Source: Candidatus Limnocylindria bacterium (GTDB lineage: Bacteria; Chloroflexota; Limnocylindria; P2-11E). Taken from it: a stretch of 62,054 nt of DNA. The notes under the pieces are model-generated. The model was not told where the DNA came from. It saw nothing but the letters and a program-made list of their open reading frames with translations, and searched no databases. The stretch is from NCBI GenBank assembly GCA_036276035.1, contig DASUCM010000105.1, positions 1 through 62,054 on the forward strand, read 5' to 3'. Positions 11,620 through 56,919 of the stretch are shown in pieces; position 1 is the stretch's first letter, and the number at the start of each line of letters is the position of its first letter. Position numbers and translations under genes: made by a program.

Positions 11620-11645
11620 GGCCTAGTGCGTCCCGCCGGGAACGG

Positions 11646-13517: not shown

Positions 13518-13572
13518 AAGATATGGGACCTGGGGCCACTACAGAAGGGGGACGCCGCGGCGGGCACGGGAA

Positions 13573-13596: not shown

Positions 13597-13620
13597 CCGA
13601 AGCTCAGTGCGTGGTGACCG

Positions 13621-30489: not shown

Positions 30490-31430
30490 GGCAGCTTCTC
30501 TGCGACGCGGAGCCGTGCGCTGCGGGCGCGCGGGTTGCGTGCGACCTCCGCCGAGTCCGCAGAGAGCGGACGCCGGGTAACGACACGCAGACCCGCGCGA
30601 TGCCCGCAGACGCAGGTGGGGAGGTGGGGAGGACAGATGCAGTCGCGCGATTCCCGGGCGAAGTACTGCTTCACGGCCCGGTCCTCGAGCGAGTGGAACG
30701 CGATGACGGCGAGCCGGCCGCCGGGCCGGAGGATGCGCGTCGCGGCCTCGAGGCCGCGCGCGAGGTTGTCGAGCTCGGCGTTCACGGCCATGCGCAGCGC
30801 CTGGAAGACCCGGGTCGCCGGATCGGTCGACCTCGGGCGGCGCGTCTTCACGCCCGCGACGAACCGTCCGAGCTCGTCGGCGGTCGTGAAGGGGTCGCGG
30901 GCGCGGCGCCGCACGATCGCGTTCGCGACGCGCGCGGCCTCCGGCTCCTCACCGAGCTCGGTGAAGATCCGGCGCAGATCCGCCGCGGACCAGGTGTTCA
31001 CGAGATCGGCCGCCGACCGGCCGGCATCCGGGCCGGCGCGCATGTCCAACGGTCCGGTCGAGCGGAAGCTGAACCCGCGCCCCTCGTCGGCGAGCTGGAT
31101 CGACGAGAGCCCGAGATCGAAGAGGACGCCGTCGAGGTCCGCGAACCCGTGCGCGCGGGCCAGCTCGTCGCAAACCGCGAAGTTGCCTTCCACGACGAGC
31201 GCGCGGCCTCCGAAACGCTCCAGCTCCCGTCGCGCGATCGCGAGGGCCGCAGGATCGCGGTCGAGGCCGAGGAGGCGGCCTGACGGCGCGGTGCGCTCGA
31301 GGATGGCGGCGGCGTGACCGCCGGCGCCGACCGTGCCGTCAAGGAAGCGGCCACCTTCGACGGGATGAAGCTCGGCGAGTACTTCGGCCAGGAGAACCGG
31401 CTCATGAGCCCTCCCACCGCTAGATCCCAA
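30486..31430 (-). CDS. rsmH: 16S rRNA (cytosine1402-N4)-methyltransferase RsmH
   Basis: HEPVLLAEV, DGTVGAGGH, DLGLSS and AFHSLEDR motifs. The nearest in-frame start before HEPVLL is TTG 31430, overlapping the mraZ end by 11 nt. Confidence 0.92.
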   Translation of the reverse strand: MGSSGGRAHEPVLLAEVLAELHPVEGGRFLDGTVGAGGHAAAILERTAPSGRLLGLDRDPAALAIARRELERFGGRALVVEGNFAVCDELARAHGFADLDGVLFDLGLSSIQLADEGRGFSFRSTGPLDMRAGPDAGRSAADLVNTWSAADLRRIFTELGEEPEAARVANAIVRRRARDPFTTADELGRFVAGVKTRRPRSTDPATRVFQALRMAVNAELDNLARGLEAATRILRPGGRLAVIAFHSLEDRAVKQYFARESRDCICPPHLPTCVCGHRAGLRVVTRRPLSADSAEVARNPRARSARLRVAEKLP

Positions 31431-31884
31431 GGTCCTTGAGGGTCTCGCCGATGGAGCGTTCGACGTCCCCGAGGTGGCTGCGCCAGCGCGCGGGCTGCCA
31501 GACCTCGAGGTTGCGCGAGACGCCGACGACGACGGCCTCGTCCGTGAGGCCCGCCCAGTCGCGGAGGTGCTGCGGGATGACGATCCGGCCCTGTCCGTCC
31601 GGGTCCGCCTCATGTGCGCTCGCCACGAGGAAGCGCTGGAAGCGCACCAGGGCGGGATCCGTGCGCGGCCGGCTGGCGATCGCGGCGTTCAGCGACTCCC
31701 ACTCCGGGGCCGGGAAGAGGGCGAGGCACTCGGGATCCCAACGCGTCACGACCGCTCCTTCTTTGAAGCGGGGACGGAACTTTGCGGGGATCGCCAGCCG
31801 ACCCTTCTCGTCCAGCTGGTGCGCGAACTCGCCAGCGAAGATGCTTTCCACTGACCCCTTCGACTGGAGGAGGTGTTTCCCCAC
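31420..31884 (-). CDS. mraZ: transcriptional regulator MraZ
   Basis: Two SpoVT/AbrB-like repeats (DEKGRLAIPAKFR, DGQGRIVIPQHLR). GTG 31851 (VESIFAGEF...) would give the canonical N-terminal length and avoid overlap with the operator repeats. Confidence 0.9.
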   Translation of the reverse strand: MGKHLLQSKGSVESIFAGEFAHQLDEKGRLAIPAKFRPRFKEGAVVTRWDPECLALFPAPEWESLNAAIASRPRTDPALVRFQRFLVASAHEADPDGQGRIVIPQHLRDWAGLTDEAVVVGVSRNLEVWQPARWRSHLGDVERSIGETLKDLGI

Positions 31885-31925
31885 CTTCCCCCACTACTCA
31901 CCACGCGATGGGCAACATACCCCAC
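31879..31925 (-). promoter_or_regulatory. candidate MraZ operator: GTGGGG direct repeats at ~10-nt phasing
   Basis: On the plus strand, ccccac occurs at 31879..31884, 31889..31894 and 31920..31925, with a degenerate caccac at 31899..31904. MraZ is known to bind phased GTGGG-type repeats upstream of its own gene. Confidence 0.5.
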
Positions 31926-31983
31926 TGGGGCGCCCTGTCAAGGCCTTTGTGAGCGCGATCTCAGGGAAAGCGGGCTCGCGCGG

Positions 31984-33315
31984 CTAGACCGCGACGGGAT
32001 CGGGGGCCGGCCAGTCCTCGAGCAGGAGGCTGAGACCGGCGGCCAGCGAGGCGGCGACGGCGCAGGCGAAGAACAGCGCGGACGCGTCGCGCCCCTGGTC
32101 GGCGAGCAGCGACACGAGCAGCGCTCCGACGATCCCGCCCGCATAGCGGCTCGTCGAGAAGATGCCCGAGGCGACGCCCGCCCGCTCCGGCTCGACGGTC
32201 TCGACCGCCGCCGCACGGAGCCCGCCGGCAAGCAGACCGAGTCCCACCCCGCAGGTGAGCAGGCCCGGGATGAGCGCGGCCGGCGCGGCCATGAGGACGA
32301 GCGCGCCGGCCGCGAAGAGCGCGTGTCCCGCCACGCTCGGCCAGCGGCGCCCCGCGCGGTCCGCGAGGCGGCCGCCGACGGGGGCGAGCACGACGCTCGT
32401 CACGAAGAGCGCGGCCAGCGCGGCGCCGCTGGAGAGCGCGGCGGTGCTCGCCTCGGCGGACCGGGCGACGACCACCGGGACGGCGAGCATCGTCGCGTAC
32501 ATGGCGCAGTTGCTCAGCGCGATGGTCCCGTTCGCCGCGGCGAATGTCCTGTCGCGGAAGAGCCGCGGCTGCACGATCGGATCCTCGCGCGCGCGCTCGT
32601 ATCGCACGAGCGCGACCGTGCCGATGACGAGCGCGCCGGTCAGCGCCGCGAGGACGGCCGCCGATGCGCTGCGCACCAGGCTGAGCGTCCACGCCGCACC
32701 GCCAAGGAGGACCGAGAGACCCGCGGCACCGACGACGTCGAAGGGCAGGTAGCGCGGACGCGCATCCCGGGGGATCGCGGCCCAGCCGAGCGCGAGCGCC
32801 GCCGTCACGAGCGGAACGTTCACGGCGAAGGTGGCGCGCCAGTCGAACGCCGCGACGAGCAGGCCACCGAGGACCGGTCCTGCCGCGGCGCCGACGCCGG
32901 TGGCCGCAGCCACGAGCGCGAAGGCGCTGCCCCGGCCGTCGACGACCGCGGTGCGCACGAGCGCCCCCGCGTTCGGCATCAGCACGGCACCCGCGAGCGC
33001 CTGCTGGAGCCGGAACGCGATGAGCCACCCGAGCTCATTCGAGAGCGCCGCGCCGACCGAGGCGGCGGCGAACCAGGCGAGGGCTCCGAGCAGCAGCCGG
33101 CGGCGGCCGAAGGTGTCGCCGAGCTTTCCCCCGACCGGTTGCAGGGCCGCCATCGCGATGAGGTACAGCGTGACGAGCCAGCTCGCGGACACGAGATCGG
33201 TGCCGAGCCCGCTGACGATGTCGGGGAGCGCGATCGCGATCATCGTCGAGTTCAGCGGGATGAGGAGCGATGCGAGGCCGAGCGACGCGACGAGCGGTCG
33301 CGTGCTCCGGCTCAG
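31984..33315 (-). CDS. MFS transporter (drug:H+ antiporter-like, 12-14 TM)
   Basis: TM1 (PLVASLGLASLLIPLNSTMIAIALPDI) and GKLGDTFGRRR (motif A). There is no ATG/GTG/TTG before TM1. CTG 33315 overlaps the upstream TGA (CTGA). Confidence 0.85.
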   Translation of the reverse strand: MSRSTRPLVASLGLASLLIPLNSTMIAIALPDIVSGLGTDLVSASWLVTLYLIAMAALQPVGGKLGDTFGRRRLLLGALAWFAAASVGAALSNELGWLIAFRLQQALAGAVLMPNAGALVRTAVVDGRGSAFALVAAATGVGAAAGPVLGGLLVAAFDWRATFAVNVPLVTAALALGWAAIPRDARPRYLPFDVVGAAGLSVLLGGAAWTLSLVRSASAAVLAALTGALVIGTVALVRYERAREDPIVQPRLFRDRTFAAANGTIALSNCAMYATMLAVPVVVARSAEASTAALSSGAALAALFVTSVVLAPVGGRLADRAGRRWPSVAGHALFAAGALVLMAAPAALIPGLLTCGVGLGLLAGGLRAAAVETVEPERAGVASGIFSTSRYAGGIVGALLVSLLADQGRDASALFFACAVAASLAAGLSLLLEDWPAPDPVAV

Positions 33316-34979
33316 GCCGCGCCCACGATGCGAACGATCCCGGCGTCGCCGTCGACCTCGATCTCCTCGCCATCCCGGATGGACGAGGTGCCGTGGCCGG
33401 TGCCCACGACCGCGGGGATCCCGTACTCGCGCGCGACGATCGCCGAGTGGCTCAGCGCGCCACCGGCGTCGGTGACGAGCGCCCGGATCCGCGCGAAGAG
33501 CGGCGTCCACGGCGCGGCGGTCATCTGCGTCACCAGGATCTCGCCGGCGGCGATGCGCTCGGCCTCCGCGGGCGTGTGCGCCACGCGCGCGATGCCGCGG
33601 GCGCGGCCCGCAGAGCCCGGATGTCCCCGCACGATGCCGTGCTCGCTCGGCGGCGGCGGCGCTCCGGCGAAGCTGAGGGTGGCGCGGTCGACGATGCTCG
33701 TGCCCGCGCCGGGCGAGGGGGCGCCGAGAGACCGCGGGGGATCGATCCGTGCGGCGCGCTCGAGCTCCTGCCGCCGGGCGTCGATCCGACCCCGGAGATC
33801 GGCGGCGGGATGGCCGAGCAGGGCGTCGGCCAGCTCCACCAGCCGCAGGTGGAAGACGTCGTCGACCTCTGGGATCACGCCATCGGCCACGAGGAGCCGC
33901 GCGGCCGCCTGCGCGCGGATGCGCATGAGGAACGATGTCGGGAAGTCGATGTAGAAGTTGTGCGTCTCCTGGATGCGCACAGCGTCCTGCGCCGAGCGGA
34001 GCAGGACCTCGAACTCGTCGCGTACGGGCTGCGGGTACCACCGGATGCGCTCGCGCGCCGCGGAGACCGCGTCGTCCCGCTCGCGTCGCACGGTGGCGAG
34101 CTGCTCTGCCGGGTCGCGCCCGCTCGCGAGCAGCTCCCGGATCTCGCCGAGCACGGCGCCCGGGCGCTCGATCACGCTCGGCTCCGCCGGATCCATGGTG
34201 ATGCCGCGGCGGCCGTACCGCGTGAGGTGCTCGTTGAAGAGCGCGCGGAACGCAGCGGCCTCCGGCGCGGTCTCGATCGCCTGCGCGAGATCCTCCGGGG
34301 CGGCGCTCACGAGCACATCCGCGACCGGTCGGTCAGCCCGGGCCGCGGCGGCGAGGGCCCAGAGCGAGCGCGCGGCCTCGACGGTCTTGGAATCCTCGCC
34401 CTGCAGCAGACGGAGCGCGTCGAGCTGCGTCGCGTCCTCGAACAGCTCGCGGTACAGCTCCGTGAACAGCTCCATCGCCGTCAGCGCCGGAGGCATCACG
34501 AGGAAGTGGATCTCCCAAAGCCGCGCGAACCGCGTCGTGGCGAGCGCGAGCTCCGTCGCGAGCTCCCTGCGGTCGAGCTGCTCGAGCGGCACGGCGTCGA
34601 ACGCTGCGAGGAGCGCCTCGATCTCGGGCAGCATCCCGCTCCAGACCTCGCCCGCGCGGCGCGCGAGCGACACGTAGCGGGCCTCGGCGCGGAGCTTTCG
34701 CGTCGCGAGCTCGGCGGCGGGGAGCTCGAGCGGGCGCGCCCCCCGGTAGAGATAGCCGTTGATCCGCCGCTGGAGCCGCTCGATGGGCCGCTCGAGCGCC
34801 GCGTCGGCCCGCGACATGCCGGTGTCCTGCGAGAGCCGCCGCAGGTCGTGCGTCAGGACCGTGATCGGGCGGGGGTAGTGCAGTCGCGCGAGCGTCCAGG
34901 CGACGGTCGCGTCGCGCGGGTCCTCCCACTCGACCGCGGGGGCTGCCTCCGCCGCGGCGTTCGCGACCGACCCGCTCAC
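33312..34979 (-). CDS. PEP-utilizing enzyme, central plus C-terminal swivel phosphohistidine domain (rifampin phosphotransferase/PpsA-like, C-terminal part)
   Basis: The C-terminus VTDAGGALSHSAIVAREYGIPAVVG is the mobile His domain. GTG 34979 overlaps the upstream TGA (GTGA). Confidence 0.8.
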   Translation of the reverse strand: MSGSVANAAAEAAPAVEWEDPRDATVAWTLARLHYPRPITVLTHDLRRLSQDTGMSRADAALERPIERLQRRINGYLYRGARPLELPAAELATRKLRAEARYVSLARRAGEVWSGMLPEIEALLAAFDAVPLEQLDRRELATELALATTRFARLWEIHFLVMPPALTAMELFTELYRELFEDATQLDALRLLQGEDSKTVEAARSLWALAAAARADRPVADVLVSAAPEDLAQAIETAPEAAAFRALFNEHLTRYGRRGITMDPAEPSVIERPGAVLGEIRELLASGRDPAEQLATVRRERDDAVSAARERIRWYPQPVRDEFEVLLRSAQDAVRIQETHNFYIDFPTSFLMRIRAQAAARLLVADGVIPEVDDVFHLRLVELADALLGHPAADLRGRIDARRQELERAARIDPPRSLGAPSPGAGTSIVDRATLSFAGAPPPPSEHGIVRGHPGSAGRARGIARVAHTPAEAERIAAGEILVTQMTAAPWTPLFARIRALVTDAGGALSHSAIVAREYGIPAVVGTGHGTSSIRDGEEIEVDGDAGIVRIVGAA

Positions 34980-35932
34980 CTCGCGTGCCCGCCGTCGCCC
35001 GCCGTCGTCGTGACGGGACGGCACTGCAGCAGGTAGAGCGTGCCTGCGCGGAACGCGCACTCGACGTCGACCGGCGCGCCGGTCTCGTCCTCGAGCGCGA
35101 GCGCGAGCTCCGCGGCCGCGCGCACGGCGGCGTCGTCGAGCGCGAGGCGCTCGCGGAGGATGCGCGGGACGCGGACCTCGCGCGTGCCGTCCGCCGTTCG
35201 CACCGTCATGCGCTCCTTCGCCCCGACGGTCCGCGACCGGATCACGAGCCGGTCGCGCCGGACGGTGTACACGTCCGGCGTCGCGGTCCCGCCGACGATG
35301 CTCTCGCCGAGACCCCAGCTCGCGTTGATGACGACGTCGTCCGATCCGGTCCGTGGGTCCACGCTGAAGACGACCGCGGCGACGTCCGCCGGGACGAGCT
35401 GCTGCACGAGCACCGCGATCGATCCGGCCGCGTCGAGGCCCTGGGCCCTCCGGTAGGCGAGCGCGCGCTCGGAGCGCACGGACGCGCGGCAGCGCGCGAT
35501 CGCGTCGGCCACCGCGTCCGCTCCCGTCAGGTTGAGGTAGGTGTCGTGCTGTCCGGCGAACGACGCGCCTGCGCCGTCCTCATCCACGGCCGACGAGCGC
35601 ACGGCCACGGCGGGCTCATCCTCTCCCACCCGCCGTCCGAGCTCGCGATACGCCTCGGCGATGGCGGACCGGAGCCCGCTGTCGTCGGGAGCAGCGGTCG
35701 CCGTCAGGCAGAACCCGGCCGGGACGCGGTGGCCGGCGGCGAGCCGGCTGAGGCTCGCGGCCTTGCCGCCGGCGACGCGGGGATCGTCGGCGCCGGGCGC
35801 ACCGAGCCACAGGATGTCGATGACGCGCGAGTCTAGGTGGGACGCACCCGGTCGACGACGTCCTCGAGCACCCGCGCGGCGCGCTCGCGCATGCCCGGCT
35901 CGCGCTGCTCGGGCAGCGGGCTGCCCCACCAC
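34976..35932 (-). CDS. PEP/pyruvate-binding (PPDK_N, ATP-grasp) domain protein, the N-terminal part of a split rifampin phosphotransferase/PpsA-like enzyme
   Basis: VAGGKAASLSRL, AVRSSAVDEDGAGASFAGQHDTYLN and SWGLGESIVGG. GC3 shows coding only begins after the fabH stop (35833). The real start is therefore probably near-cognate (ATC 35821/35815 or CTG 35812) rather than GTG 35932. Confidence 0.8.
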   Translation of the reverse strand: MVGQPAARAARAGHARARRAGARGRRRPGASHLDSRVIDILWLGAPGADDPRVAGGKAASLSRLAAGHRVPAGFCLTATAAPDDSGLRSAIAEAYRELGRRVGEDEPAVAVRSSAVDEDGAGASFAGQHDTYLNLTGADAVADAIARCRASVRSERALAYRRAQGLDAAGSIAVLVQQLVPADVAAVVFSVDPRTGSDDVVINASWGLGESIVGGTATPDVYTVRRDRLVIRSRTVGAKERMTVRTADGTREVRVPRILRERLALDDAAVRAAAELALALEDETGAPVDVECAFRAGTLYLLQCRPVTTTAGDGGHAR

Positions 35933-36912
35933 TCGAGGACCGCGGCGCCCCAGGTGAACCCGCCGCCGAAGGCGACGAGGAGCACCTTCTGCCCGCGCCG
36001 GAGCAGGCCGTCGTTCGCGGCCTCGGCGATCGCGATCGGGATGGACGCGGCGGAGGTGTTCCCGTACTTCTCGAGGTTCACGAAGACCTTGGACATCGGG
36101 ATGTCGAGGCGCTTCGCGACGCCCTCGATGATCCGCCTGTTCGCCTGGTGCGGGATGACGATGTCGATGTCCCTCAGCTCGAGGCCCGCGTCGGCGATCG
36201 CTTCCTCGGCGGCGTCGGCCATCGACTTCACGGCCATCTTGAAGACCTCACCGCCCTGCATCCGGATGAAGTGGTGACCCTTGTCGACGGTGTCGTGCGT
36301 CGCGGGGACGCGCGAGCCGCCGCCCTTCACGTACAGGAGCTCCCCCTTCGCCCCGTCCGAATGGAGCACGGTGGACTCGATGCCGACGGATGCGTTCGAG
36401 GCCTCCAGCACGACGGCTCCCGCGCCGTCGCCGAAGACGACGCAGGTCGTGCGGTCTGTCATGTCGAGCAGGCGCGAGAGCGTTTCGGCGCCGATGACGA
36501 GCGCATTCTTCACCGAGCCGGCGATGATCATCCCGTTCGCGATGGCGAGCGCCGAGACGAAGGAGGTGCAGGCGGCCTCGACGTCGAACGCGCCGGCGCG
36601 CTCCGCGCCGAGCGCCGTCTGGACCAGGCAGGCCGTGGCCGGGAAGAGGTAGTCCGGCGAGCAGGTGCCGACGATGATCAGCTCCACCTCGGAGGGGCGC
36701 ATCCGCGCGCGCTCGAGCGCGATCTTCGCCGCGCGGGTGGACATCGTCGCGGTGCCCTCGCCGTCGGCGGCCCAGCGGCGCTCCTTGATCCCGGTGCGCT
36801 CGGTGATCCACTGGTCGGAGGTCTCGACCATCTTCTCGAGGTCGAAGTTCGTGACGACCCGCGACGGCGCGTAGGAGCCCCACCCGGTCACGACCGCGTT
36901 CTGCTTGGCCAC
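35833..36912 (-). CDS. fabH: beta-ketoacyl-ACP synthase III
   Basis: SDQWITERTGIKERR, the catalytic Cys (EAACTSF), HQAN and GNTSAASIP, plus a ~30-aa C-terminal extension. Confidence 0.9.
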   Translation of the reverse strand: MAKQNAVVTGWGSYAPSRVVTNFDLEKMVETSDQWITERTGIKERRWAADGEGTATMSTRAAKIALERARMRPSEVELIIVGTCSPDYLFPATACLVQTALGAERAGAFDVEAACTSFVSALAIANGMIIAGSVKNALVIGAETLSRLLDMTDRTTCVVFGDGAGAVVLEASNASVGIESTVLHSDGAKGELLYVKGGGSRVPATHDTVDKGHHFIRMQGGEVFKMAVKSMADAAEEAIADAGLELRDIDIVIPHQANRRIIEGVAKRLDIPMSKVFVNLEKYGNTSAASIPIAIAEAANDGLLRRGQKVLLVAFGGGFTWGAAVLEWWGSPLPEQREPGMRERAARVLEDVVDRVRPT

Positions 36913-36913
36913 G

Positions 36914-37279
36914 CTAGCTCTGGTCCGTTGTCCGCTCCGTCGTCTTCGGGCGCGCGCCGCGCGCCGGCACCGCGAGGAGGTCGTCGAGCGCGCCCTCGTA
37001 GGTGCGCAGGAACTCGTGCGCGTCGAGCACCTCGTCGAGCGTCACAGGCGCCTTGCGGCGAGCCGCGCTCGGGTGGTCCTTCTTCGTCGCGACCGCCTTC
37101 GACTCGTCGACGACGACGAGGAGGCGGAACTCGGTCTGGCACGAGTGGCAGATGACCCGGACGATCCAGGCGAGCTCGACCCGCCCGACGAGCTTGATCT
37201 CCGAGCGCGCGTGGTTGGCGCCGCAGACGGTGCACTCGTACTGCTTCGCCTCCTCGCGCAGGTACCGGAGGATGTTCAT
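36914..37279 (-). CDS. small zinc-ribbon protein (CxxC...CxxC), unknown function
   Basis: ATG 37279 overlaps the upstream TGA (ATGA). The product is MNILRYLREEAKQYECTVCGANH...VICHSCQTEF. The longer track ORF upstream is filler overlapping the peptidase gene. Confidence 0.6.
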   Translation of the reverse strand: MNILRYLREEAKQYECTVCGANHARSEIKLVGRVELAWIVRVICHSCQTEFRLLVVVDESKAVATKKDHPSAARRKAPVTLDEVLDAHEFLRTYEGALDDLLAVPARGARPKTTERTTDQS

Positions 37280-39348
37280 GCTCCGACTGTACCTCCAAGG
37301 CGCCAGCCGAGGAACGACCAGATGTCCGCCAGATCGTCCACCTGCTTCGACAGCGGCTTGCCGACGCCGTGGCCGGCGTCGCGGTCGACGCGCAGGAGCA
37401 CGAGCTCCGCGCCCGGATGCGCCTGGAGCAGCGCGGCCATCTTCCGCGCGTGCATCGGGTCGACGCGGCTGTCGCCTTCGGCGGTCGTGAACAGCACCGC
37501 CGGGTAGCGCTCCCCTTCGCGCACGTTGTGGTACGGCGAGTACGCGCGCAGCCAGCGGTACTGCACGGGGTCCTCGGAGGAGCCGTACTCGGCGATCCAG
37601 AAGCGCGCGATGAGGAGGTGCTGGTACCGCAGCATGTCGAGGAGCGGGACGGTGCAGACGATCGCGCCGTAGAGGTCGGGGCGCTGCGTGATGGCCGCGC
37701 CCATGAGCAGGCCGCCGTTCGAGCCGCCGAACGCGCCGACCCGCCCGCGCCGCGTCCAGCCCACGGCGGCGAGGTGCTCGGCTCCCGCGTGCAGGTCGTC
37801 GAACACGTTCTGCTTGTTCGCGAGCATGCCCGCGCGGTGCCACCGCTCGCCGAACTCGCTGCCGCCGCGCAGGTTCGCGAGCGCGTAGACGCCGCCGCGC
37901 TCCGCCCAGAGGATCGCCCCGGCCGTGTACGTCGGGACGCGCGCCACGTTGAAGCCGCCGTAGCCGGTGAGGACCGTCGGGACGTCGCCGGTCGGCGCGA
38001 CATCCGCCCGGTGCACCAGGAACATCGGGATCGCCGTCCCGTCCTTCGAGCGGTACGTCGTCTGATCCACGACGACGGGCGCGCGGAGCGCGGGCTGCGC
38101 CGTTGCCACGAGAGGCGTCGTGCGGCCGGAGGCCGTGTCGAGCGCGTACGCGCGCGGGGAGAGCGCGAACGACTGGAAGGCGAAGCACGCGAGCTCGCTC
38201 TCGGCGTCGGCGGAGATCCCGGATCCCGGGACGCTCGGGGTCACCGCCCCCAGCGCAGGCAGCTCGATCTCGCGCTCGTGCTGCCCGTCACGCCGCCACA
38301 GCGCGAGGCGCGACGTCGCGCGCTCGAGCCGGTGGACAAGGATGCGGTCCCTCGTGAGGTCGAACTCCTCGATGGAGTGGTCGCCCTCGGGGATGACGTC
38401 GCGCCACTCGCGCGGGCGGTCGAACTGCGCGTGGACGATCCGGTAGTTCGGGGCGCCAAGGTTCGTGCGGATCCAGATGCCGTCGCGATCGAGCTGGCCG
38501 CTCGAGAGCCCGTCCTCGCCCTCGACGACGACAGCGAGCCCGCGCTCAGGATGCTCGCGGTCGAGGAGGTACAGGTCGTTCGTCACCCAGCCGCGGAACG
38601 CGCTGAGCAGGACCCAGCGCCCGTCCGGCGAGGTCTGGACGCCGACGATGTCCTCCTTCGCGCGACCCTCGCCGAAGACGATCGGGTCGGCCCTTCCGCC
38701 CGGCGGGGCCTCGCTCAGCTCGTGGTACCGGACGCGGCGGTGGTAGTGCTCGTCGCCCGGCGGGACGGTGCCCGGCTCCGGGTGGGCGACGTAGTAGAAC
38801 CCCTCGCCGGCCCACGCGACCTGCGAGCGCTGGGTGTGCGGGATGGCGATGCCGAGGTCCCGGCCGCTCGCGACGTCGCGCACGTGCAGGGTCGACATCT
38901 CGGTGCCGCCGCGCGACAGCCCGATCGCGACGAGGCGCCCATCCGGCGACGGGTAGTACCAGTCGATCGTGAGGAGGCCGCTGCGATCGAGCTCGTTCGG
39001 GTCGACGAGCGGACGGTCCGCCCCTCCGACGCCGTCGCGGACGTAGAGGACCGCCTGCGCCTGCGCGCCCTCCCGCCGCAGGTGGAAGATCCGTCCCGCG
39101 ACCGGCCGCGGGGTCCCGAGCAGCCCGACGGACAGCAGCTCGCGAAGGCGCGACGCGATCGCCTTGCGCTCGGGGAGCGCGTCGAGGACCGCGCGCGTCC
39201 GCGCGTTCTGTGCGTCCGTCCACTCCGCGACGCGCGGGCTCTGCGCATCCTCGAGCCAGCGGTACGGGTCGGTGACCGTGTCCCCGAAGTAGGTGTCCGC
39301 GACATCCTCGCGCGGCGTCGCGGGCACCGGTGGGATGGCTGGGTCCAC
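37276..39348 (-). CDS. prolyl oligopeptidase (S9A family)
   Basis: N-terminal DPYRWLED, a beta-propeller region, and the catalytic GGSNGGLL with D and H downstream (DRDAGHG). Confidence 0.9.
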   Translation of the reverse strand: MDPAIPPVPATPREDVADTYFGDTVTDPYRWLEDAQSPRVAEWTDAQNARTRAVLDALPERKAIASRLRELLSVGLLGTPRPVAGRIFHLRREGAQAQAVLYVRDGVGGADRPLVDPNELDRSGLLTIDWYYPSPDGRLVAIGLSRGGTEMSTLHVRDVASGRDLGIAIPHTQRSQVAWAGEGFYYVAHPEPGTVPPGDEHYHRRVRYHELSEAPPGGRADPIVFGEGRAKEDIVGVQTSPDGRWVLLSAFRGWVTNDLYLLDREHPERGLAVVVEGEDGLSSGQLDRDGIWIRTNLGAPNYRIVHAQFDRPREWRDVIPEGDHSIEEFDLTRDRILVHRLERATSRLALWRRDGQHEREIELPALGAVTPSVPGSGISADAESELACFAFQSFALSPRAYALDTASGRTTPLVATAQPALRAPVVVDQTTYRSKDGTAIPMFLVHRADVAPTGDVPTVLTGYGGFNVARVPTYTAGAILWAERGGVYALANLRGGSEFGERWHRAGMLANKQNVFDDLHAGAEHLAAVGWTRRGRVGAFGGSNGGLLMGAAITQRPDLYGAIVCTVPLLDMLRYQHLLIARFWIAEYGSSEDPVQYRWLRAYSPYHNVREGERYPAVLFTTAEGDSRVDPMHARKMAALLQAHPGAELVLLRVDRDAGHGVGKPLSKQVDDLADIWSFLGWRLGGTVGA

Positions 39349-39365
39349 GCGCCGACTCTAGACGG

Positions 39366-40259
39366 CTACCCGCTCCGCTTCAGGCGGCCGGTCCGCTTCG
39401 CGTACCGCTCGGCCGAGATGAACAGCCGGAGGCCGATGGGGATCGAGAGCGCGCCGATGAGCAGCGCGGGCCAGACGAGCGGCCACAGCGTGACGAGGTC
39501 GGCCCCGTCGAGGAGCGCCTGGCGCATCCCTTCGATGACGTACGTGGCCGGCGAGATGACCGAGAGCGCCTGGAGCCAGCCGGGAAGGACCGTCGTCGGG
39601 TAGTAGACGCCCGACACGAGGAGCACGACGGCCTGGACGATGTAGGCCATCTGGAGCCCCTTCTCGGTCCAGATGAGCGGGAAGCAGGCCGAGGCGATGC
39701 CGAGACCGATGAACGCCATCGTGCCGACGCCGAGCAGCGCGACCGCCGAGAGGGCGTTCGCGCGGGAGAGGTCCACGTCGATGAAGAGCACGACCGCGAA
39801 GAGCACGAGGATGCTGATGACCGCTGCGCGGAGGATCGTGCCGATCGACATGCCGATGAGGTGCGTGAGCCGCGGCACCGGCGCCATGAACGTGTACTCG
39901 ATGGTGCCCTCCCACTTCTCCCAGGCGATGATCTCGGCGATGTCCTCGAAGACGATGCCGAGGAAGCGCCAGGCGATCGTGCCGACGAGCAGGTAGAGGA
40001 CGAAGCGCGACGTCGTCGCCGGATCCACCTGCTCGCCGGTGATCGCCGGTGCCGCGAGACCGATGTACGCGACGGAGAGGGACGTCGTGATCGAGTAGAT
40101 GATCCAGACGACCTCCCAGAGCCAGTAGCGCTTCATCAGCGCGACCGTCCGCTCGACGAACGCGTACGCGAGCTTCGGCTGCTGCGTGAACGTCGAGAGC
40201 CTTTGACTGGGGCTCGGACCGGGCCGGCGAAGCCGGGCCGGTCCGGACGTCTTGATCAC
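39366..40259 (-). CDS. ABC-2 type transporter permease
   Basis: Six hydrophobic segments. The GTGA overlap with the upstream ATPase stop is present. Confidence 0.85.
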   Translation of the reverse strand: MIKTSGPARLRRPGPSPSQRLSTFTQQPKLAYAFVERTVALMKRYWLWEVVWIIYSITTSLSVAYIGLAAPAITGEQVDPATTSRFVLYLLVGTIAWRFLGIVFEDIAEIIAWEKWEGTIEYTFMAPVPRLTHLIGMSIGTILRAAVISILVLFAVVLFIDVDLSRANALSAVALLGVGTMAFIGLGIASACFPLIWTEKGLQMAYIVQAVVLLVSGVYYPTTVLPGWLQALSVISPATYVIEGMRQALLDGADLVTLWPLVWPALLIGALSIPIGLRLFISAERYAKRTGRLKRSG

Positions 40260-41068
40260 TCTGCGTCATCCACGATGCTGCGGCCCGTCACCGTCATGAA
40301 GACCGACTCGAGGTCGCCGCCGAACCGCTCGCGCAGCTCGTCCGACGTGCCCTCGGCCACCAGGCGCCCGCCGTGGATGATGCCGATGCGGTCCGCGAGC
40401 CGCTCCGCCTCGTCGAGGTCGTGCGTGGTCAGGAGGATGCTCGCGTCGTGCTCGTCCCGAAGGTCGCGCACGAACGTCTGCACCTCCCGCTTGCTCCGGA
40501 TGTCGAGCCCGGTCGTCGGCTCGTCGAGCAGCAGGAGCATGGGCGTCGAGAGGAACGCGCGCGCGATAGACACCTTCTGCTGCATGCCGCGCGACAGCTT
40601 CTCGAGCGGCTCGTCGAAGCGTGCCGAGGGGATCCCGAGGCGGCGGAGGATCGTCGATGCGGTCGCGCGCGACGCTCTCGCGTCGACGCCGTACAACCGT
40701 CCCGCGTAGACGAGGTTCTCCATCGCCGAGAGCTTCTTGAAGAAGGACGCCTCGACCGAGACGCGGTTGATGAGCCGCTTCACCGTGAGCTCCTCGAGCC
40801 CGACGTCGTGGCCGAAGACGCGGACCTCGCCCGCGTCGGCCTCGAGCAGCGTCGAGAAGAGCCGGATGAGCGTCGACTTGCCGGAGCCGTTCGCGCCGAG
40901 CAGCCCGTAGATCTCGCCCCGGCGTACCGAGAGCGAGACGTCGTCGACGGCACGGATCTGCTTGCCGTTCCGCGAGCCGCGGAACGACTTGCTGACCCGC
41001 TGGGCGAGCAGGGCGGACCCGGCCACCCGGGCCGGGGATCGTGGCGCGTCGCGTGTCGCGAGAGCCAT
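40256..41068 (-). CDS. ABC transporter ATP-binding protein
   Basis: Walker A GANGSGKST, signature LSRGMQQKV and Walker B LLLLDEPT. In-frame ATG 41068 has AGGGAA upstream. The track start at 41146 lies inside the terminator hairpin. Confidence 0.9.
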   Translation of the reverse strand: MALATRDAPRSPARVAGSALLAQRVSKSFRGSRNGKQIRAVDDVSLSVRRGEIYGLLGANGSGKSTLIRLFSTLLEADAGEVRVFGHDVGLEELTVKRLINRVSVEASFFKKLSAMENLVYAGRLYGVDARASRATASTILRRLGIPSARFDEPLEKLSRGMQQKVSIARAFLSTPMLLLLDEPTTGLDIRSKREVQTFVRDLRDEHDASILLTTHDLDEAERLADRIGIIHGGRLVAEGTSDELRERFGGDLESVFMTVTGRSIVDDAE

Positions 41069-41114
41069 CGCTCGTTCCCTTTCGAGTCCTGTGCCCACGT
41101 CGCCGTCATCGGCG

Positions 41115-41150
41115 AAACAAAAAGACCGTGGGCCCTTGCTGCCCACGGTC
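41115..41150 (-). terminator. canonical intrinsic terminator (gaccgtgggc-agcaagg-gcccacggtc followed by TTTTTGTTT)
   Basis: Perfect 10-bp stem (41124..41133 with 41141..41150), 7-nt loop and a U tract at 41123..41115 on the minus strand, only ~50 nt upstream of the ABC start codon. Confidence 0.75.
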
Positions 41151-41300
41151 CGGAGGTGCTCGCTGAGCCTGGCTTAGGCCCTAATGGCTCCGGAAAGTGG
41201 GCAGGCTGATCCGAGGATCGACCTCGGTGCGCGGTGCGAAGAGGGTCAACACCAGCTGCGCCACTTCCTTTCGTGATCTCGTCCGCGCGCGTGCGGGACC
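41115..41300 (-). ncRNA. candidate structured 5' leader / riboswitch-like element ahead of the ABC-2 exporter operon
   Basis: Long-range helix aagtggcgcagctgg (41266..41252) with cagcctgcccactt (41210..41195). An internal hairpin ccgagg-tcgat-cctcgg is present. CUGCCCAC can alternatively pair with GUGGGCAG of the terminator 5' arm. Confidence 0.45.
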
Positions 41301-41305
41301 GGCGC

Positions 41306-41335
41306 ACGCTAGCAGGCGGACGCTCGCTCCGTCAA
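41306..41335 (-). promoter_or_regulatory. candidate promoter for the leader (TTGACG-18 nt-TAGCGT)
   Basis: Hexamers read on the minus strand just downstream of the Cys-rich ORF stop. Confidence 0.3.
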
Positions 41336-41363
41336 TGGTGAAGAGATCGCGGCGGCCGGGCCG

Positions 41364-41513
41364 CTAGCAGCAGCACGGTCCGCCGCGCGCGCAGCCCTCG
41401 CAGCAGTAGTCCCGGCCGCCCACGATCACGCGCTCCGCACGGATCGTGATGCGGCAGTTCGCGCAGCGGAGCGGCGGCTGCGCCGCGCCCATCTCGCCGA
41501 CCTGCGTCGTCAT
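41364..41513 (-). CDS. 49-aa Cys-rich protein, TRASH/YHS-like metal-binding pattern
   Basis: MTTQVGEMGAAQPPLRCANCRITIRAERVIVGGRDYCCEGCARGGPCCC. 47 of 49 codons end in G/C and there are 8 Cys. It is not in the ORF track (too short). The listed 41332..41568 ORF in another frame looks spurious. Confidence 0.6.
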   Translation of the reverse strand: MTTQVGEMGAAQPPLRCANCRITIRAERVIVGGRDYCCEGCARGGPCCC

Positions 41514-41538
41514 CGCTCCCGACCGTAGGACGCCGATG

Positions 41539-41570
41539 GTCAACGGCGCGTCGACGGAAGGTCAACATTC
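41539..41570 (-). promoter_or_regulatory. triple direct repeat GAAT-GTTGAC-N5-GTCGAC-N5-GTTGAC (11-nt period), candidate response-regulator operator
   Basis: On the plus strand, gtcaac occurs at 41539, gtcgac at 41550 and gtcaac at 41561. It lies 25-55 nt upstream of the Cys-rich ORF start. It is almost identical to 44101..44132. Confidence 0.5.
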
Positions 41571-41572
41571 GG

Positions 41573-42268
41573 TCACTCCGGCGCCGGGAACTGATACCCC
41601 ACCCCCCGCACGGTGAGGATGTAGCGCGGGGACTGCGGATCGGCCTCGAGCTTGTTCCGCAGCCGGCCCACGTACACCTTCAGGTAGTGCGACTCGTTCC
41701 GGTACTCGGCGCCCCAGACCTTCGCGAGGAGCGTCTCGTGCGGCATCACGCGGCCGGCGTTCGTGGCGAGGTGGTACAGGAGGTTGTACTCGATCGGCGT
41801 CAGCGCGACGTGGCGGCCGCGCACGCTCACGCGCCGCTGTGCGTAGTCGATCTGGAGATCGCCGTGCGTGAGCACGTTCGCCCGGCGCTGGGCGGTCGCC
41901 GAACGGTAGCGCCGGAGCACGGCCTCGATGCGGGCCATGAGCTCCTTGTGGCTGAACGGCTTCGTGATGTAGTCGTCCGCGCCGAGCTCCAGCCCGCGCA
42001 CCTTGTCAGCCTCGAGGTCGCGCGCGGTGATGACGATGATCGGCAGCTCCATCCCCGACGACCGCAGCTCCTCGAGGATGCTGAAGCCGTCGCGTCCCGG
42101 CATCGCGAGGTCGAGCAGGAGCAGGTCGGGCCGCTCGTCCTCCACCCGCGCGATCGCCTCGAGCGCGTTCGTGCACTCCACCACCACGTGGTCGGGCCGG
42201 TGGAACGTGATGCCCATCGCCGTCAGGGCGGCGACATCGGGCTCGTCGTCGACGATGAGGATCTTCAT
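41573..42268 (-). CDS. OmpR/KdpE-like response regulator
   Basis: MKILIVDDEPD, DLLLLDLAMPGRDG and DDYITKPF, with a winged helix (LTVRGVGYQF). Confidence 0.92.
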   Translation of the reverse strand: MKILIVDDEPDVAALTAMGITFHRPDHVVVECTNALEAIARVEDERPDLLLLDLAMPGRDGFSILEELRSSGMELPIIVITARDLEADKVRGLELGADDYITKPFSHKELMARIEAVLRRYRSATAQRRANVLTHGDLQIDYAQRRVSVRGRHVALTPIEYNLLYHLATNAGRVMPHETLLAKVWGAEYRNESHYLKVYVGRLRNKLEADPQSPRYILTVRGVGYQFPAPE

Positions 42269-44046
42269 CCGACCGCTCCGGCGGCGGCCGGGACGGGCTC
42301 GTGCGGAAGCGCCACGACGAAGCGCGCGCCGCGCGGGCCATCCTCGACCCGGATGCGCCCGCCGTGCAGGCCGACGAGGTCCTTCGCGATCGCGAGCCCG
42401 AGGCCCGTGCCGCCGGCGACATCGCGGTCGCGCCGCAGGCGGACGAACTTGTCGAACACACGCTCGCGCTCGTCAGCCGGGATCCCGGGGCCCTCGTCGG
42501 CGACGGCGAGCTCGACCACGTCCCCGGCGCGCGCCGCGCTGAGCTCGATCGCCGCACCGTCCGGCGAGTAGCGGATCGCGTTCGACACGAGGTTCGCGAG
42601 CACCTGCAGCATGCGGCGCCGGTCGACGTAGACGGGTGGCGCCGAGGATGGCGCGATCACGATGCGCTGCCCGCGCGCGCCGGCGAGCGCCTCGTGCGCC
42701 GCCGCCGTCTCGGCGAGCAGCGCGTCGCACGGGATGAACTCGCGGTCGAGCTCGACCTTCGCCTCCTGCAGCTGCGCGATCTCGAGCAGCTCGCCGACGC
42801 TCCTGGTCAGGCGCTGGGCGTGACGTTCGGCCTGCGCGATGAGCGTCCGCGCCTGGTCCGTCATCGATCCGGCCTGGCGGCCAAGGAGCTCGAGCGCGCC
42901 GGAGACGACCGTGAGCGGCGTGCGGAGCTCGTGGCTGACCGCGGCGAGGAACTCGTCCTTCAGGCGGTCGATCTCGCGGAGCGCCTGGGCCTCGCTCGCC
43001 TGCGCGAAGAGCCGCTGGTTCTCGAGGGTCTGCGCGATGAGCGCGGCGACGGCGCCGGAGAGGCGGAGGTCGTCGTCGGTGAACCGGTCGGGCAGCGCGC
43101 GAGAGAGGGTGAACACCGCGATCGCGCGCCCGCCGACGCGGAGCGGCACGAGGATGACCGAGCGGGCGGGCTCGCCGGGCCGCGGCTCGTAGCGCGGGTC
43201 CTCCAGGACGTTCGGCACGAGGATCGGGCGCTCCTCGGCGAGCGCCGCCGCGACGAGGCCGTGCCCGAGCGGAGCCCGCGGCGGGAGAACGTCGTCATCG
43301 CCCGACGCGAGGCGGTGGAGCACCCGGTACTCATCGCGCGCCTCGTCCGCGACGAAGACCGTCGCGCGGTCGAACAGGAGGACCGCCCGCGCCGCATGCA
43401 GGACACGCGGGATGACCTCGTCCGGCGCCGCGACGGTGGCGACGACCTTGGTCGCGACGGCGAGCGCGGCGTCCTCGGCGATGCGGCGCTCGAGCCGGGC
43501 GATGAGGTCCTCGCGCTCGGTGCGGAGCTGGCGCGAGTCGCGCATGACGCGGTCCACGAGCACGGCGGTGAGCGCGTAGACGGACAGCGTGAAGAGGACG
43601 CGCTCCGGCTCGAAGGCGTAGCCGAAGGCCCGGTCGCGAAAGATGACGGTCGCCGTGTAGACCGTGCCGAGCGAAAGGGAGGCGGCGAGGGTGCCGCCCG
43701 TGCCGAAGCGGAACGCGCCGGTCGTGATGACGAGGGGCCCGAGCATGAAGGTGGTCCAGCCCGGATCGGCCGAGAAGAGCACCATCGCCGCGGCCAGCGC
43801 CGCGATGTCGCCCGCGAACGCCGCCCGCGCGACCGTCGCGTGCGCCGCGCGCGAGGCGGCGCGCCGCGAGGCTGCGAGCGCCGCGACGTTATAGAGGACG
43901 ATCCCCGCACCGAGGGCGTAGACGCCCTGCACCGAGAGCGTGGGGAACAGGGGGCCGAGGAGCAGCGCGATCGCCGCGGCGCCCCAGCGCACGCGACCGA
44001 TGGCTCGCTCGACCCGCTGGGCCTCGAGCAGGAGACGGTCGGTCAT
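42265..44046 (-). CDS. sensor histidine kinase with membrane-spanning N-terminus and GAF domain
   Basis: In-frame ATG 44046 (MTDRLLLE), ~5 TM helices, a GAF-like segment, the H-box VSHELRTPLT, and GTGLGLAIAKDLV. The ATGA overlap with the response regulator start is present. Confidence 0.9.
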   Translation of the reverse strand: MTDRLLLEAQRVERAIGRVRWGAAAIALLLGPLFPTLSVQGVYALGAGIVLYNVAALAASRRAASRAAHATVARAAFAGDIAALAAAMVLFSADPGWTTFMLGPLVITTGAFRFGTGGTLAASLSLGTVYTATVIFRDRAFGYAFEPERVLFTLSVYALTAVLVDRVMRDSRQLRTEREDLIARLERRIAEDAALAVATKVVATVAAPDEVIPRVLHAARAVLLFDRATVFVADEARDEYRVLHRLASGDDDVLPPRAPLGHGLVAAALAEERPILVPNVLEDPRYEPRPGEPARSVILVPLRVGGRAIAVFTLSRALPDRFTDDDLRLSGAVAALIAQTLENQRLFAQASEAQALREIDRLKDEFLAAVSHELRTPLTVVSGALELLGRQAGSMTDQARTLIAQAERHAQRLTRSVGELLEIAQLQEAKVELDREFIPCDALLAETAAAHEALAGARGQRIVIAPSSAPPVYVDRRRMLQVLANLVSNAIRYSPDGAAIELSAARAGDVVELAVADEGPGIPADERERVFDKFVRLRRDRDVAGGTGLGLAIAKDLVGLHGGRIRVEDGPRGARFVVALPHEPVPAAAGAVG

Positions 44047-44100
44047 GCGGTGGGCAGAGCCTAGCGGGCCGCGGTGACAGGGCGCATGCGCCCGTTGCCC

Positions 44101-44132
44101 GAATGTTGACGTTCCGTTGACCGGCCGTTGAG
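44101..44132 (+). promoter_or_regulatory. triple direct repeat GAAT-GTTGAC-N5-GTTGAC-N5-GTTGAG (11-nt period), candidate response-regulator operator
   Basis: Repeats at 44105, 44116 and 44127, lying 39-66 nt upstream of the S8 peptidase ATG in the region divergent from the kinase gene. A 14-bp perfect palindrome gggcgcatgcgccc lies at 44081..44094. Confidence 0.5.
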
Positions 44133-44170
44133 CGCGGCAGCGCCATCCTCCCGCCACCACGAACGGGGGT

Positions 44171-45940
44171 ATGGAAATGCAGCCACAAAAGGCAGCCGCG
44201 CTGGTCAGCTCGCTCCTTCTCGCGCTCGCGGTCTCGCTCGCGCCGCTCGGCGGGCAGGCCGCCGCCCAGGCGAGGATCGATCCGACGCTCCAGGCCGCCA
44301 TCCAGCAGGGCGGCACGGTCGCCGCCATCGCGATGTTCGACCATCCGGTCACCGCGATCGACAAGGCACGCCTCCAGGCGGCCGGCGCGACGACGGTCGT
44401 GCCGTACACGCGCTGGCCGTGGGCCGGCGTGATCGGTCCGGCAGGCGCGATCCAGGCGATCGCCGGGTTCGCCGACGTCCGCGAGATGCAGTTCGCGCCG
44501 GACATCGACTTCTACCTGCACGAGAGCGTGAAGCTCATCGGCGCGGACCGCGCGTGGGCGCCGAAGTCGGCTGGCGGGCTCGGCACGACGGGCGCCGGCA
44601 TCGGCGTCGCGATCGTCGACTCCGGGATCAACGCCACGCACCCTGATCTCGCGAAGCGCGTCGTGAAGAACCTGAAGTTCGTCGCCGACTACGTCGTCGA
44701 GACGAACGACTCCGACACGACGAGCGGACACGGCACGCACGTGGCGGGTACCGTCGCGGGCGACGGCACCGCCTCCAAGACGGGGACCTCGGCCGACCTC
44801 GGCGGCTACGGCTACTACACCGGCGTCGCCCCGGGGGCGGACCTCATCGGCCTCGGCGTCGGCGACGGCCGCAACATCATCTGGTCGCTCTCCGCGTTCA
44901 ACTGGATCGCCGACAACCACCGCGCGTACAACATCCGCGTCGTCTCCAACTCCTGGGGCGCGGCGGGCGGAGGGCCGTACAACCCGTCCTCGTCGATCAG
45001 CGTCGCGGCGGAGTCGCTCGCGGACCTCGGGATCACCGTTGTCTTCGCCGCCGGGAACGACGGCGTGAACTCCGGCACGACCTCGAGCGCGAACAACACG
45101 CTCAGCTCCTACTGCGGCGGGCGCGTCATCTGCGTCGCCTCCGGGACGAAGGACCGGACCCTCTCGAGCTTCTCGTCGACCGGCGCGCCGGACAACAGCC
45201 GGACGCCGACGCTCACGGCGCCCGGCACGCGCATCTGCGCGACGCGGAACCCTCACGGCATCACGACCGGCTCCCAGGCCGACGCGGGCCTGTTCGCGGA
45301 CACGCCGGCCGTGCGGCCCGAGTGGCTGCCCTACTACACCTGCATCAGCGGGACGAGCATGGCCACGCCGCACGTGTCCGCGACCGTCGCACTCATGCTC
45401 CAGCTGAACCCGGCGCTCACGCCGGTCGACATCGCGCGCGTGCTCGGCGCGACCGCGAGCGTCATGCCCGGCTATCAGCCGTACCAGGTCGGCGCGGGCT
45501 ACCTCGACGCCTACGCCGCCGCCGCGATGGCAAAGAAGACGCGCAGCACGGGCACCTGCAGGACGAAGAGCGGGAAGCAGCTCGCGACCGTCATCACGAG
45601 CGAGAGCTACAGCGGCACCATCGGGGTAGGCGTCGCCGACGCCGGCGCGGCCGCCCACGACCTGTACCCGTTCACCGTCGGGACGAAGGCGATCCGCGTG
45701 ACCGTGACCATCAACTGGACGACGCCCCAGGATCTGGACCTGCGCGTCCTCTACCCGGACGGGACGCAGGCCTCGTCATCCGGCAACTTCCCGGGCGTCA
45801 CCACGGAGACCGCCACGAAGAGCGACGGCGACTGCAGCGGCTCTCTGCCGGCGGGCCAGTGGACCGCCGACGCGGTCGGCTACGCGACCGTGGCGGAGAG
45901 CTACACCGGCATCATCGAGGTGGAGTACCTCGCGCGCTGA
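44171..45940 (+). CDS. secreted S8 family (subtilisin-like) serine peptidase with C-terminal beta domain
   Basis: Signal peptide and catalytic triad motifs VAIVDSGI, GHGTHVAGTVAG and SGTSMATPHVS. Confidence 0.92.
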   Translation: MEMQPQKAAALVSSLLLALAVSLAPLGGQAAAQARIDPTLQAAIQQGGTVAAIAMFDHPVTAIDKARLQAAGATTVVPYTRWPWAGVIGPAGAIQAIAGFADVREMQFAPDIDFYLHESVKLIGADRAWAPKSAGGLGTTGAGIGVAIVDSGINATHPDLAKRVVKNLKFVADYVVETNDSDTTSGHGTHVAGTVAGDGTASKTGTSADLGGYGYYTGVAPGADLIGLGVGDGRNIIWSLSAFNWIADNHRAYNIRVVSNSWGAAGGGPYNPSSSISVAAESLADLGITVVFAAGNDGVNSGTTSSANNTLSSYCGGRVICVASGTKDRTLSSFSSTGAPDNSRTPTLTAPGTRICATRNPHGITTGSQADAGLFADTPAVRPEWLPYYTCISGTSMATPHVSATVALMLQLNPALTPVDIARVLGATASVMPGYQPYQVGAGYLDAYAAAAMAKKTRSTGTCRTKSGKQLATVITSESYSGTIGVGVADAGAAAHDLYPFTVGTKAIRVTVTINWTTPQDLDLRVLYPDGTQASSSGNFPGVTTETATKSDGDCSGSLPAGQWTADAVGYATVAESYTGIIEVEYLAR

Positions 45941-56845: not shown

Positions 56846-56919
56846 TGGGCCTGCCTGGATTCGAACCAGGGACCAGCGAATTATGAGTTCGCCGCTCTTG
56901 ACCACTGAGCTACAGGCCC
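56846..56919 (-). tRNA. tRNA with CAT anticodon (elongator Met, or Ile2 if lysidinylated)
   Basis: Manual cloverleaf: GGGCCTG/CAGGCCC acceptor, GCTC-AGTGGTCAA-GAGC, GCGAA-CTCATAA-TTCGC, CCTGG-TTCGAAT-CCAGG, discriminator A. The anticodon stem lacks the initiator GGG/CCC. Confidence 0.95.

Follow-up and report, generated by a model that had tools for sequence, protein, structure and literature searches.

Small-molecule dikinases built from two polypeptides have been described as HpeHI in Rhodococcus, CreHI in Corynebacterium and PpsAB (phenylphosphate synthase) in Thauera, which, in the parts of the source drawn on here, make up a two-component subfamily homologous to rifampin phosphotransferase (RPH) (PMC12167813). 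In their mechanism, the ATP-grasp part presents ATP, a histidine of the swivel domain is pyrophosphorylated, and phosphate is passed on to a phenolic substrate; a conserved catalytic His motif lies within about 50 residues of the C-terminus, and a Ser precedes the His in PpsA and CreH (PMC12167813, same parts). Here, we examine a row of eight genes that includes an enzyme of this kind, located in a stretch of 62,054 nt (hereafter, the window) of a Candidatus Limnocylindria bacterium (Chloroflexota; assembly GCA_036276035.1, contig DASUCM010000105.1). The original prediction, made from the letters of the window, took the eight genes for one candidate export, modification or resistance module. 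We consider it very likely, instead, that the row consists of four evolutionarily separate units packed side by side in the compact genome of a soil bacterium: an ABC-2 exporter, a prolyl oligopeptidase (POP), a zinc-ribbon protein (Znr) together with a housekeeping FabH, and an inserted cassette of a split dikinase and a major facilitator superfamily (MFS) transporter. This reading is built on observed gene identities, synteny, the limits of the insertion, and how many copies of fabH there are and how well fabH is conserved; substrates and co-transcription are what we infer.

Packing and synteny of the eight-gene row

The gene content, order and strand first reported for the row hold: Pfam places all eight genes on the minus strand between 31984 and 41068, and the eight frames are also backed by a frame plot of G+C content at third codon positions (GC3), in a window of about 72% G+C. 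In the direction of reading, the genes are as follows:

40256..41068, minus strand: ABC ATPase, DrrA-like (Pfam ABC_tran, 106 bits)
39366..40259, minus strand: ABC-2 type permease (Pfam ABC2_membrane, 49.9 bits)
37276..39348, minus strand: prolyl oligopeptidase, family S9A (Pfam Peptidase_S9_N, 239.6 bits, and Peptidase_S9, 181.7 bits)
36914..37279, minus strand: Znr, 121 amino acids, with two CxxC pairs in the translation
35833..36912, minus strand: FabH, beta-ketoacyl-acyl carrier protein synthase III, or KAS III (Pfam ACP_syn_III and ACP_syn_III_C)
34976..35932, minus strand: putative ATP-grasp component of a two-component dikinase, start codon uncertain (Pfam PPDK_N, 245.5 bits)
33312..34979, minus strand: putative substrate-binding and phospho-histidine swivel component (Pfam PEP-utilizers, 82.1 bits)
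31984..33315, minus strand: MFS transporter, DHA2/EmrB-like, start codon uncertain (Pfam MFS_1, 161.4 bits)

The junctions between these genes are tight, in part as originally described. Three of the four 4-nt overlaps that had been counted use standard start codons, namely those between the ABC ATPase and the permease (GTGA), between POP and Znr (ATGA), and between the ATP-grasp and swivel genes (GTGA); the fourth, between the swivel and MFS genes, exists only if CTG 33315 initiates, the other start options for the MFS gene being ATG 33243 and GTG 33510. Likewise, the claim that every junction is an overlap or a gap of no more than 17 nt stands for the four upstream junctions, including a gap of 17 nt between the permease and POP and one of 1 nt between Znr and FabH, and does not hold as worded between FabH and the PPDK_N gene. 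Where homology of the latter begins, none of the codons ATG, GTG and TTG is close by, and its start options are GTG 35929 or 35932, which would overlap fabH by about 100 nt, or CTG 35812, which would leave a gap of 20 nt. To put these figures in perspective, the genome is a metagenome-assembled genome (MAG; G000) of 2.1 Mb in 167 contigs, 83% complete, for which crude GC3-based gene calls provided 1132 same-strand neighbouring pairs. A 4-nt overlap was found in 316 of these pairs (28%) and an overlap or a gap of at most 17 nt in 635 (56%), and genes are joined as closely in five other runs of 8-9 genes. That is, tight packing is the norm in this genome and nothing special to the eight-gene row.

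Synteny was assessed in the fabH neighbourhoods of 16 genomes of the same order and four class-level outgroups, onto which the window proteins were mapped by tblastn. The usual order in the relatives is leader, ABC ATPase, ABC-2 permease, a variable insert, POP, Znr, FabH, mraZ promoter, mraZ, rsmH, ftsL and a penicillin-binding protein (PBP) gene. Znr adjoins FabH in all 16 order loci, and mraZ-rsmH-ftsL-PBP follows fabH in all 14 loci that have downstream sequence; POP lies directly upstream of the Znr gene in 12 of the 16 order loci, and both ABC genes are present in 12 of the 16. On the other hand, PPDK_N, PEP-utilizers and MFS genes were found by tblastn at none of the 20 fabH loci, the query used (E ≤ 1e-10) did not detect the three genes in the three same-genus genomes, and fabH runs straight into mraZ in the same-genus genomes G002 and G003. 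Thus, synteny of the whole array is not conserved, three of its eight genes being at the locus in 0 of 16 order relatives.

Under the single-module reading, all eight genes would form one operon with a tailoring-and-export or resistance function. Besides the co-direction and the short junctions, this reading can draw on a structured leader and a two-component system upstream, and on two scans: a simple scan of the minus strand detected no terminator-like site within 31984-41068, the sole one lying in the leader, and the only sigma-70-like site detected in 31300-41700 is the mraZ promoter, below the array. Set against these points are the three genes foreign to the locus in relatives, the variable inserts within the block, the packing of the genome at large, the conserved FabH as the sole KAS III (below), and the two-component system itself, which is present here as originally noted but is not constant, its orthologs lying upstream in just 3 of the 12 relatives' loci that hold the ATPase. 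With no conserved synteny and with FabH as the only copy found and probably the housekeeping one, the single-module idea fails, and we regard it as extremely unlikely.

A narrower possibility is that the five genes of the ABC-2 exporter, POP, Znr and FabH are a functional unit of the family, devoted, e.g., to an acylated or envelope product, with only the cassette being foreign. The order ABC-ABC2-POP-Znr-FabH-mraZ in 12 of the 16 order loci, the 4-nt overlap of POP and Znr here, and the conserved leader would all fit such a unit. However, unrelated genes stand between the permease and POP in several genera; depending on the genus, these encode GNAT-like, F420H2-reductase-like or glyoxalase proteins or an acetyl-CoA synthetase (38 of 91 called open reading frames (ORFs) were scanned for this identification). 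In G011 (locus L018), an acetyl-CoA synthetase gene (11435-13645) replaces POP directly upstream of Znr-fabH, and G005 lacks POP as well as any such substitute. The order's second family (L017) keeps only Znr-FabH-mraZ, and in G014 an MFS gene splits the ABC ATPase from the permease, which are adjacent in most relatives. Differing genes inside the ABC-to-FabH block mean that the block is loosely syntenic and no fixed operon; further, its FabH is probably the housekeeping copy, and synteny within a family can be mere inheritance. Therefore, we consider a five-gene functional unit unlikely and favor the reading of separate units for this part of the row as well. G024, too, has a gene for acetyl-CoA synthetase here, located upstream of its POP (L016, 5623-7575); since this enzyme makes the primer substrate of FabH, its placement near Znr-fabH may not be accidental.

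The inserted dikinase and transporter cassette

The downstream end of the row is an insertion, the boundaries of which were mapped against same-genus genomes. The features concerned are:

31944..35832, no strand assigned: 3.9-kb insertion, particular to this genome as far as the genomes searched go
31914..31941, minus strand: mraZ (dcw) promoter, TTGACA-16-TATGTT, intact downstream of the insertion and conserved in sequence in G002 and G003
31420..31884, minus strand: mraZ, first gene of the division and cell-wall (dcw) cluster (Pfam MraZ)

In blastn comparisons with G002 and G003, homology ends at the fabH stop (35833) and resumes in the mraZ promoter region, at 31943 for G002 and 31942 for G003. 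The insertion contains exactly the ATP-grasp, swivel and MFS genes, and the MFS gene ends 99 nt before mraZ. Mobility genes are absent from its flanks, and terminal repeats, direct or inverted, amount to no more than weak GC-rich matches; its G+C content (0.75) is slightly above that of the flanks (0.69-0.72). The cassette is a recent insertion that sits after the stop codon of fabH and before the promoter of mraZ. Pfam traces the dcw cluster below it through MraZ, MraW (rsmH), an ftsL-like gene, PBP, Mur ligases, MraY, FtsW, MurG, MurB, Ddl and FtsA to FtsZ (at about 14440). Several GTGGGG/GTGGTG repeats lie in the mraZ promoter and 5' region (31884-31943, minus strand), conserved in G002 and G003; they appear similar to the direct repeats to which MraZ binds in bacteria elsewhere.

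The two dikinase genes compare well with the described two-component enzymes. As in HpeHI, CreHI and PpsAB, the ATP-grasp domain is on its own polypeptide, and the substrate-binding and His-swivel domains are on another. The ATP-grasp part matches HpeI, which PMC12167813 (in the parts used here) gives as PDB 9GOJ, at E 1.5e-43. The motif GGALSHSAIVAR stands about 47 residues from the C-terminus of the translated 33312-34979 product, with a Ser preceding the His; that is, a GG..SH.AIVAR-type motif fewer than 50 residues from the C-terminus, with Ser before His as stated for PpsA and CreH in the same parts of PMC12167813. Unlike HpeHI, for which these parts give 40.6 and 71.1 kDa, the window proteins are shorter (about 286-318 and 555 amino acids), and unlike all three systems, no aromatic-catabolism genes adjoin and an MFS pump follows instead. 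The domain logic of ATP-grasp, substrate-binding and swivel His is also that of RPH (PMC4844700), which is a single chain, unlike the two parts found here, and the second component could be aligned to PDB 5FBS over residues 347-552. The two parts score 182.1 and 131.5 bits with the RPH equivalog model NF041857, the cut-off of which is 999, so the enzyme is not an RPH ortholog and this candidate was rejected. More generally, every curated NCBIfam cut-off is far above the scores of both parts.

The split itself is no defect. Matches to the ATP-grasp part at E ≤ 1e-20 numbered 3255 proteins within the searched range of 157-501 amino acids; five non-adjacent homologs that were fetched are 278-292 amino acids long, and several of them start with M-x-I/V-L/V-W-L exactly where the homology of the window protein begins. 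Stand-alone NCBIfam models of the PRK08296 type cover most of their own length on the second component, below cut-off. A search for loci with the second component returned four loci, one of which (L045, from a MAG labelled Bacillota) has the same three genes, split alike, with order and strand unchanged, the identities being 56%, 40% and 42%. The stand-alone homologs and L045 led us to reject the idea that a frameshift or a pseudogene lies behind the split. These homologs and models, the L045 split, and the described two-component subfamily together indicate that the split is natural, and the enzyme is, as judged from its sequence, predicted to be a two-component small-molecule dikinase of the HpeHI/CreHI/PpsAB type. 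By analogy, the ATP-grasp subunit would load pyrophosphate onto the His of the swivel domain of the second subunit, which would then phosphorylate a bound small molecule.

Family relatives carry a fused dikinase elsewhere in the genome, and an MFS homolog (45-48% identity) is convergent at the 3' end of the fused gene in all three informative loci (five loci were considered, two of them cut by contig ends). When 28 ATP-grasp sequences were placed in a tree, a single clade (support 100/99) united the five fused copies of the family, among them the paralog of this genome, and the window copy falls among split forms, with close metagenome relatives (100/100) and a next node at 98/94. The tree thus places the cassette in a lineage separate from the resident fused paralogs; being only midpoint-rooted, it gives no direction of transfer. 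Locus L031 (G006:C1:1160000-1172000) encodes at 2395-6420 one ATP-grasp segment and two tandem substrate-binding/swivel segments in one frame, beside an MFS gene.

Alternatively, the cassette could be a decaying, non-functional remnant, or a chimera created by the assembly of the MAG. In its favor, the ATP-grasp and MFS genes lack ATG, GTG or TTG at their homologous N-termini, the MAG is fragmented, and the insert is slightly higher in G+C content than its flanks. Yet all three frames are open with GC3 of at least 0.9, and the swivel component retains its catalytic His motif. Other metagenome proteins share 76-91% identity with the ATP-grasp part (P0118 with a similar N-terminal extension before the same residues), and the limits of the insert fall cleanly on a stop codon and on a promoter. 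On balance, a remnant or chimera appears rather improbable, and we favor an intact, inserted cassette. A side observation concerning the ATP-grasp gene is that its only canonical start falls inside a C-terminal extension of FabH (35833-35930; see below).

The notion of export, modification or resistance, which does not hold for the eight genes, may be retained in part for the three inserted genes. Taken alone, these have the look of a cassette for the phosphorylation and transport of a small molecule, given L045 and the fused versions beside MFS genes. The MFS protein scores 174.7 with the DHA2/EmrB model TIGR00711, under the cut-off of 230.2. Detoxification or resistance coupled to efflux is, in our judgment, the most likely role of the cassette, at a little below even chances; the main alternative, to which we give a lower though still substantial probability, is the capture of phenolics for catabolism, as for HpeHI. 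Literature searches on PF01326 with PF00391, or on Limnocylindria fatty acid, returned nothing relevant.

The sole FabH and its zinc-ribbon neighbour

A FabH without partner genes had been counted as a member of the putative module. The protein passes both curated FabH models (TIGR00747, 416.1 against a cut-off of 292.1; NF006829, 439.7 against 249), and its C115, H255 and N285, which we take to be the catalytic Cys-His-Asn triad, are invariant in 20 aligned orthologs. PF08541 matches no other protein of this genome, where a search with the FabH sequence at E ≤ 1e-20 likewise returned nothing but FabH itself. Orthologs of 66-89% identity are present in all 24 family relatives and, more broadly, an ortholog is found in 60 of 62 order genomes (G000 included; all at least 80% complete). 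Because this enzyme is the sole KAS III found, is kept throughout the order and passes the curated cut-offs, it is probably the housekeeping FabH, and its place in a specialized module has to be given up. In passing both cut-offs and in its invariant Cys, His and Asn, it is like FabH of type II fatty-acid synthesis, and a canonical FabH would start fatty-acid synthesis. Unlike the usual FabH, it lies away from fabD, fabG and fabF, with a lineage-specific Znr gene before it and mraZ after it; fabD-, fabF-, fabG- and fabK-like genes are on contig C56, which ends within the fabG-like gene, and a MarR-fabF-accB-like group is on contig C97. At its C-terminus, the protein also extends some 30 residues past the end of the family model (residues ~329-359), a stretch that was seen to be kept within the family and not in the class-level outgroups.

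The Znr gene is a constant companion of this fabH. A Znr ortholog occurs in 61 of the 62 order genomes, and a FabH ortholog is immediately downstream of it on the same strand in 60 of these 61, the sole exception being a genome where the Znr gene is cut off, apparently at a contig end (the counts come from two tables compared by hand; without the unpublished G008, G053 and G057, the pairing is 57 of 58). The protein had no match in Pfam or NCBIfam. In an alignment of 37 homologs, C16, C19 and C44 are invariant and C47 nearly so, and the sequence passes from an N-terminal zinc ribbon through a basic linker to a helix motif that is conserved at the C-terminus. The AlphaFold model (mean pLDDT 73.5) had no Foldseek match below E 0.1 in the PDB, where the best rows were generic zinc ribbons (Rpp21, NrdR, Trm112). 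All 117 homologs found are unnamed or "hypothetical", and in the protein atlas Znr falls only in "hypothetical" clusters, from Chloroflexota and Dormibacterota.

Outside the order, the family leads a different life. A profile search found a Znr-family gene in 64 of 301 sampled Chloroflexota genomes, and no FabH lay within about 5 kb on either side of such a gene in any of 20 loci from other families. Contexts of paralogs and distant homologs are diverse (rsmG/phosphoribosyltransferase/SpoIID and HSP20/ADH/Usp among them), as assessed in two sets of loci with 39 of 122 and 40 of 119 called ORFs scanned. Of 19 loci examined, six (L062-L067, other Chloroflexota families) have a distant member directly downstream of, and co-directional with, a gene with a BFN domain (bifunctional nuclease), and in four further loci a distant member adjoins a class-V aminotransferase gene. 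It is tempting to hypothesize that Znr is a lineage-specific partner or regulator of the sole FabH that ties the start of membrane-lipid synthesis to the expression of the cell-wall and division cluster, on the ground that practically all genomes of the order keep Znr directly before fabH and the pair directly before the promoter of mraZ. Since the Znr-fabH linkage is confined to one order, it may be plain inheritance, and we find the hypothesis very unlikely as stated; a housekeeping FabH that has kept its neighbour is the reading we favor.

Exporter, oligopeptidase and the wider window

The upstream end of the row is preceded by one further conserved element:

41093..41338, minus strand: conserved exporter leader, with a terminator-like hairpin and T-run at 41151-41123

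The leader was matched by blastn upstream of the ABC ATPase in 11 of the 12 relatives' loci that hold the ATPase, the miss being L013, and it is conserved with or without a two-component system present; Rfam at gathering thresholds reported nothing inside 31984-41600. The ATG at 41068 is consistent with the relatives' alignments of the ABC ATPase. The ABC-2 exporter is thus a unit of its own with a conserved structured leader (41338-39366). An ATPase and an ABC-2 permease behind such a leader are like DrrAB-type exporters, and it is unlike DrrAB proper that both subfamily cut-offs (drrA and drrB) are missed, with 228.9 for the ATPase under the 312.45 of TIGR01188 and 48.1 under the 223.05 of TIGR01247. 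Upon induction, this DrrAB-like exporter would probably expel a toxic small molecule.

Further upstream lie genes for an OmpR-type response regulator and a histidine kinase that contains a GAF domain, and a kinase-regulator pair was also seen upstream of the exporter in three more distant genera. Between the response regulator and the leader (41364-41513, minus strand), an ORF of 49 amino acids, the GC3 of which is 0.96, is Cys-rich (CxxC ... YCCxxC ... and a final CCC) and had no match in Pfam. The same-genus G001 shows no homology upstream of 41338, and the Cys-rich ORF, the two-component system and a subtilase therefore appear to be extra in this genome. A CheY-like regulator and an HD-domain gene, at 46.2-48.2 kb in the window, were found about 1 kb or less from the exporter in G001 (L008) and G003 (L010), so that the kinase, regulator and subtilase (41573-45937) look like a second indel.

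As for the POP, both the N-terminal beta-propeller and the C-terminal S9 catalytic domain score above the Pfam cut-offs, and its translation contains GGSNGG, presumably the serine motif. A cytosolic S9A enzyme of this type would probably be used for peptide turnover. Elsewhere in the window, Rfam identified an RNase P RNA (class A; 54397-54698, minus strand) and tRNA genes at 789-862 (plus strand) and 56846-56919 (minus strand).

A few points weigh against a row of separate units. No terminator-like site was detected inside the array, and transcripts that start at the exporter leader may run on as far as the MFS gene. Synteny of the five genes ABC-ABC2-POP-Znr-FabH extends over an entire family, which could reflect function rather than inheritance. 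Regarding FabH, a FabH-like paralog of 52-58% identity is also present in 12 of the 62 order genomes (more distant KAS III-like genes occur in other genomes of the order), and acpP was not found in the 83%-complete MAG, so that a second fabH could likewise be missing from its 167 contigs. Finally, because two cassette genes have no canonical start where their homology begins, the cassette may be poorly expressed or decaying. We nonetheless hold four separate units, with the boundaries described above, to be the reading that best accounts for the row.

In conclusion, each piece of the row is a further example of an already known kind. The row nevertheless carries a caution for work on small, gene-dense genomes, in which genes that are co-directional and overlap by 4 nt need not belong to one functional module, and a lone fabH, if it is the only copy, is no sign of secondary metabolism. 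It also offers a clean, datable case of a dikinase and MFS cassette that landed between a housekeeping gene and the dcw promoter. An uncharacterised zinc-ribbon family of Chloroflexota has one member fixed before fabH throughout one order, and the recurring pairing of kinase and pump represents a candidate small-molecule phosphorylation-and-transport unit.

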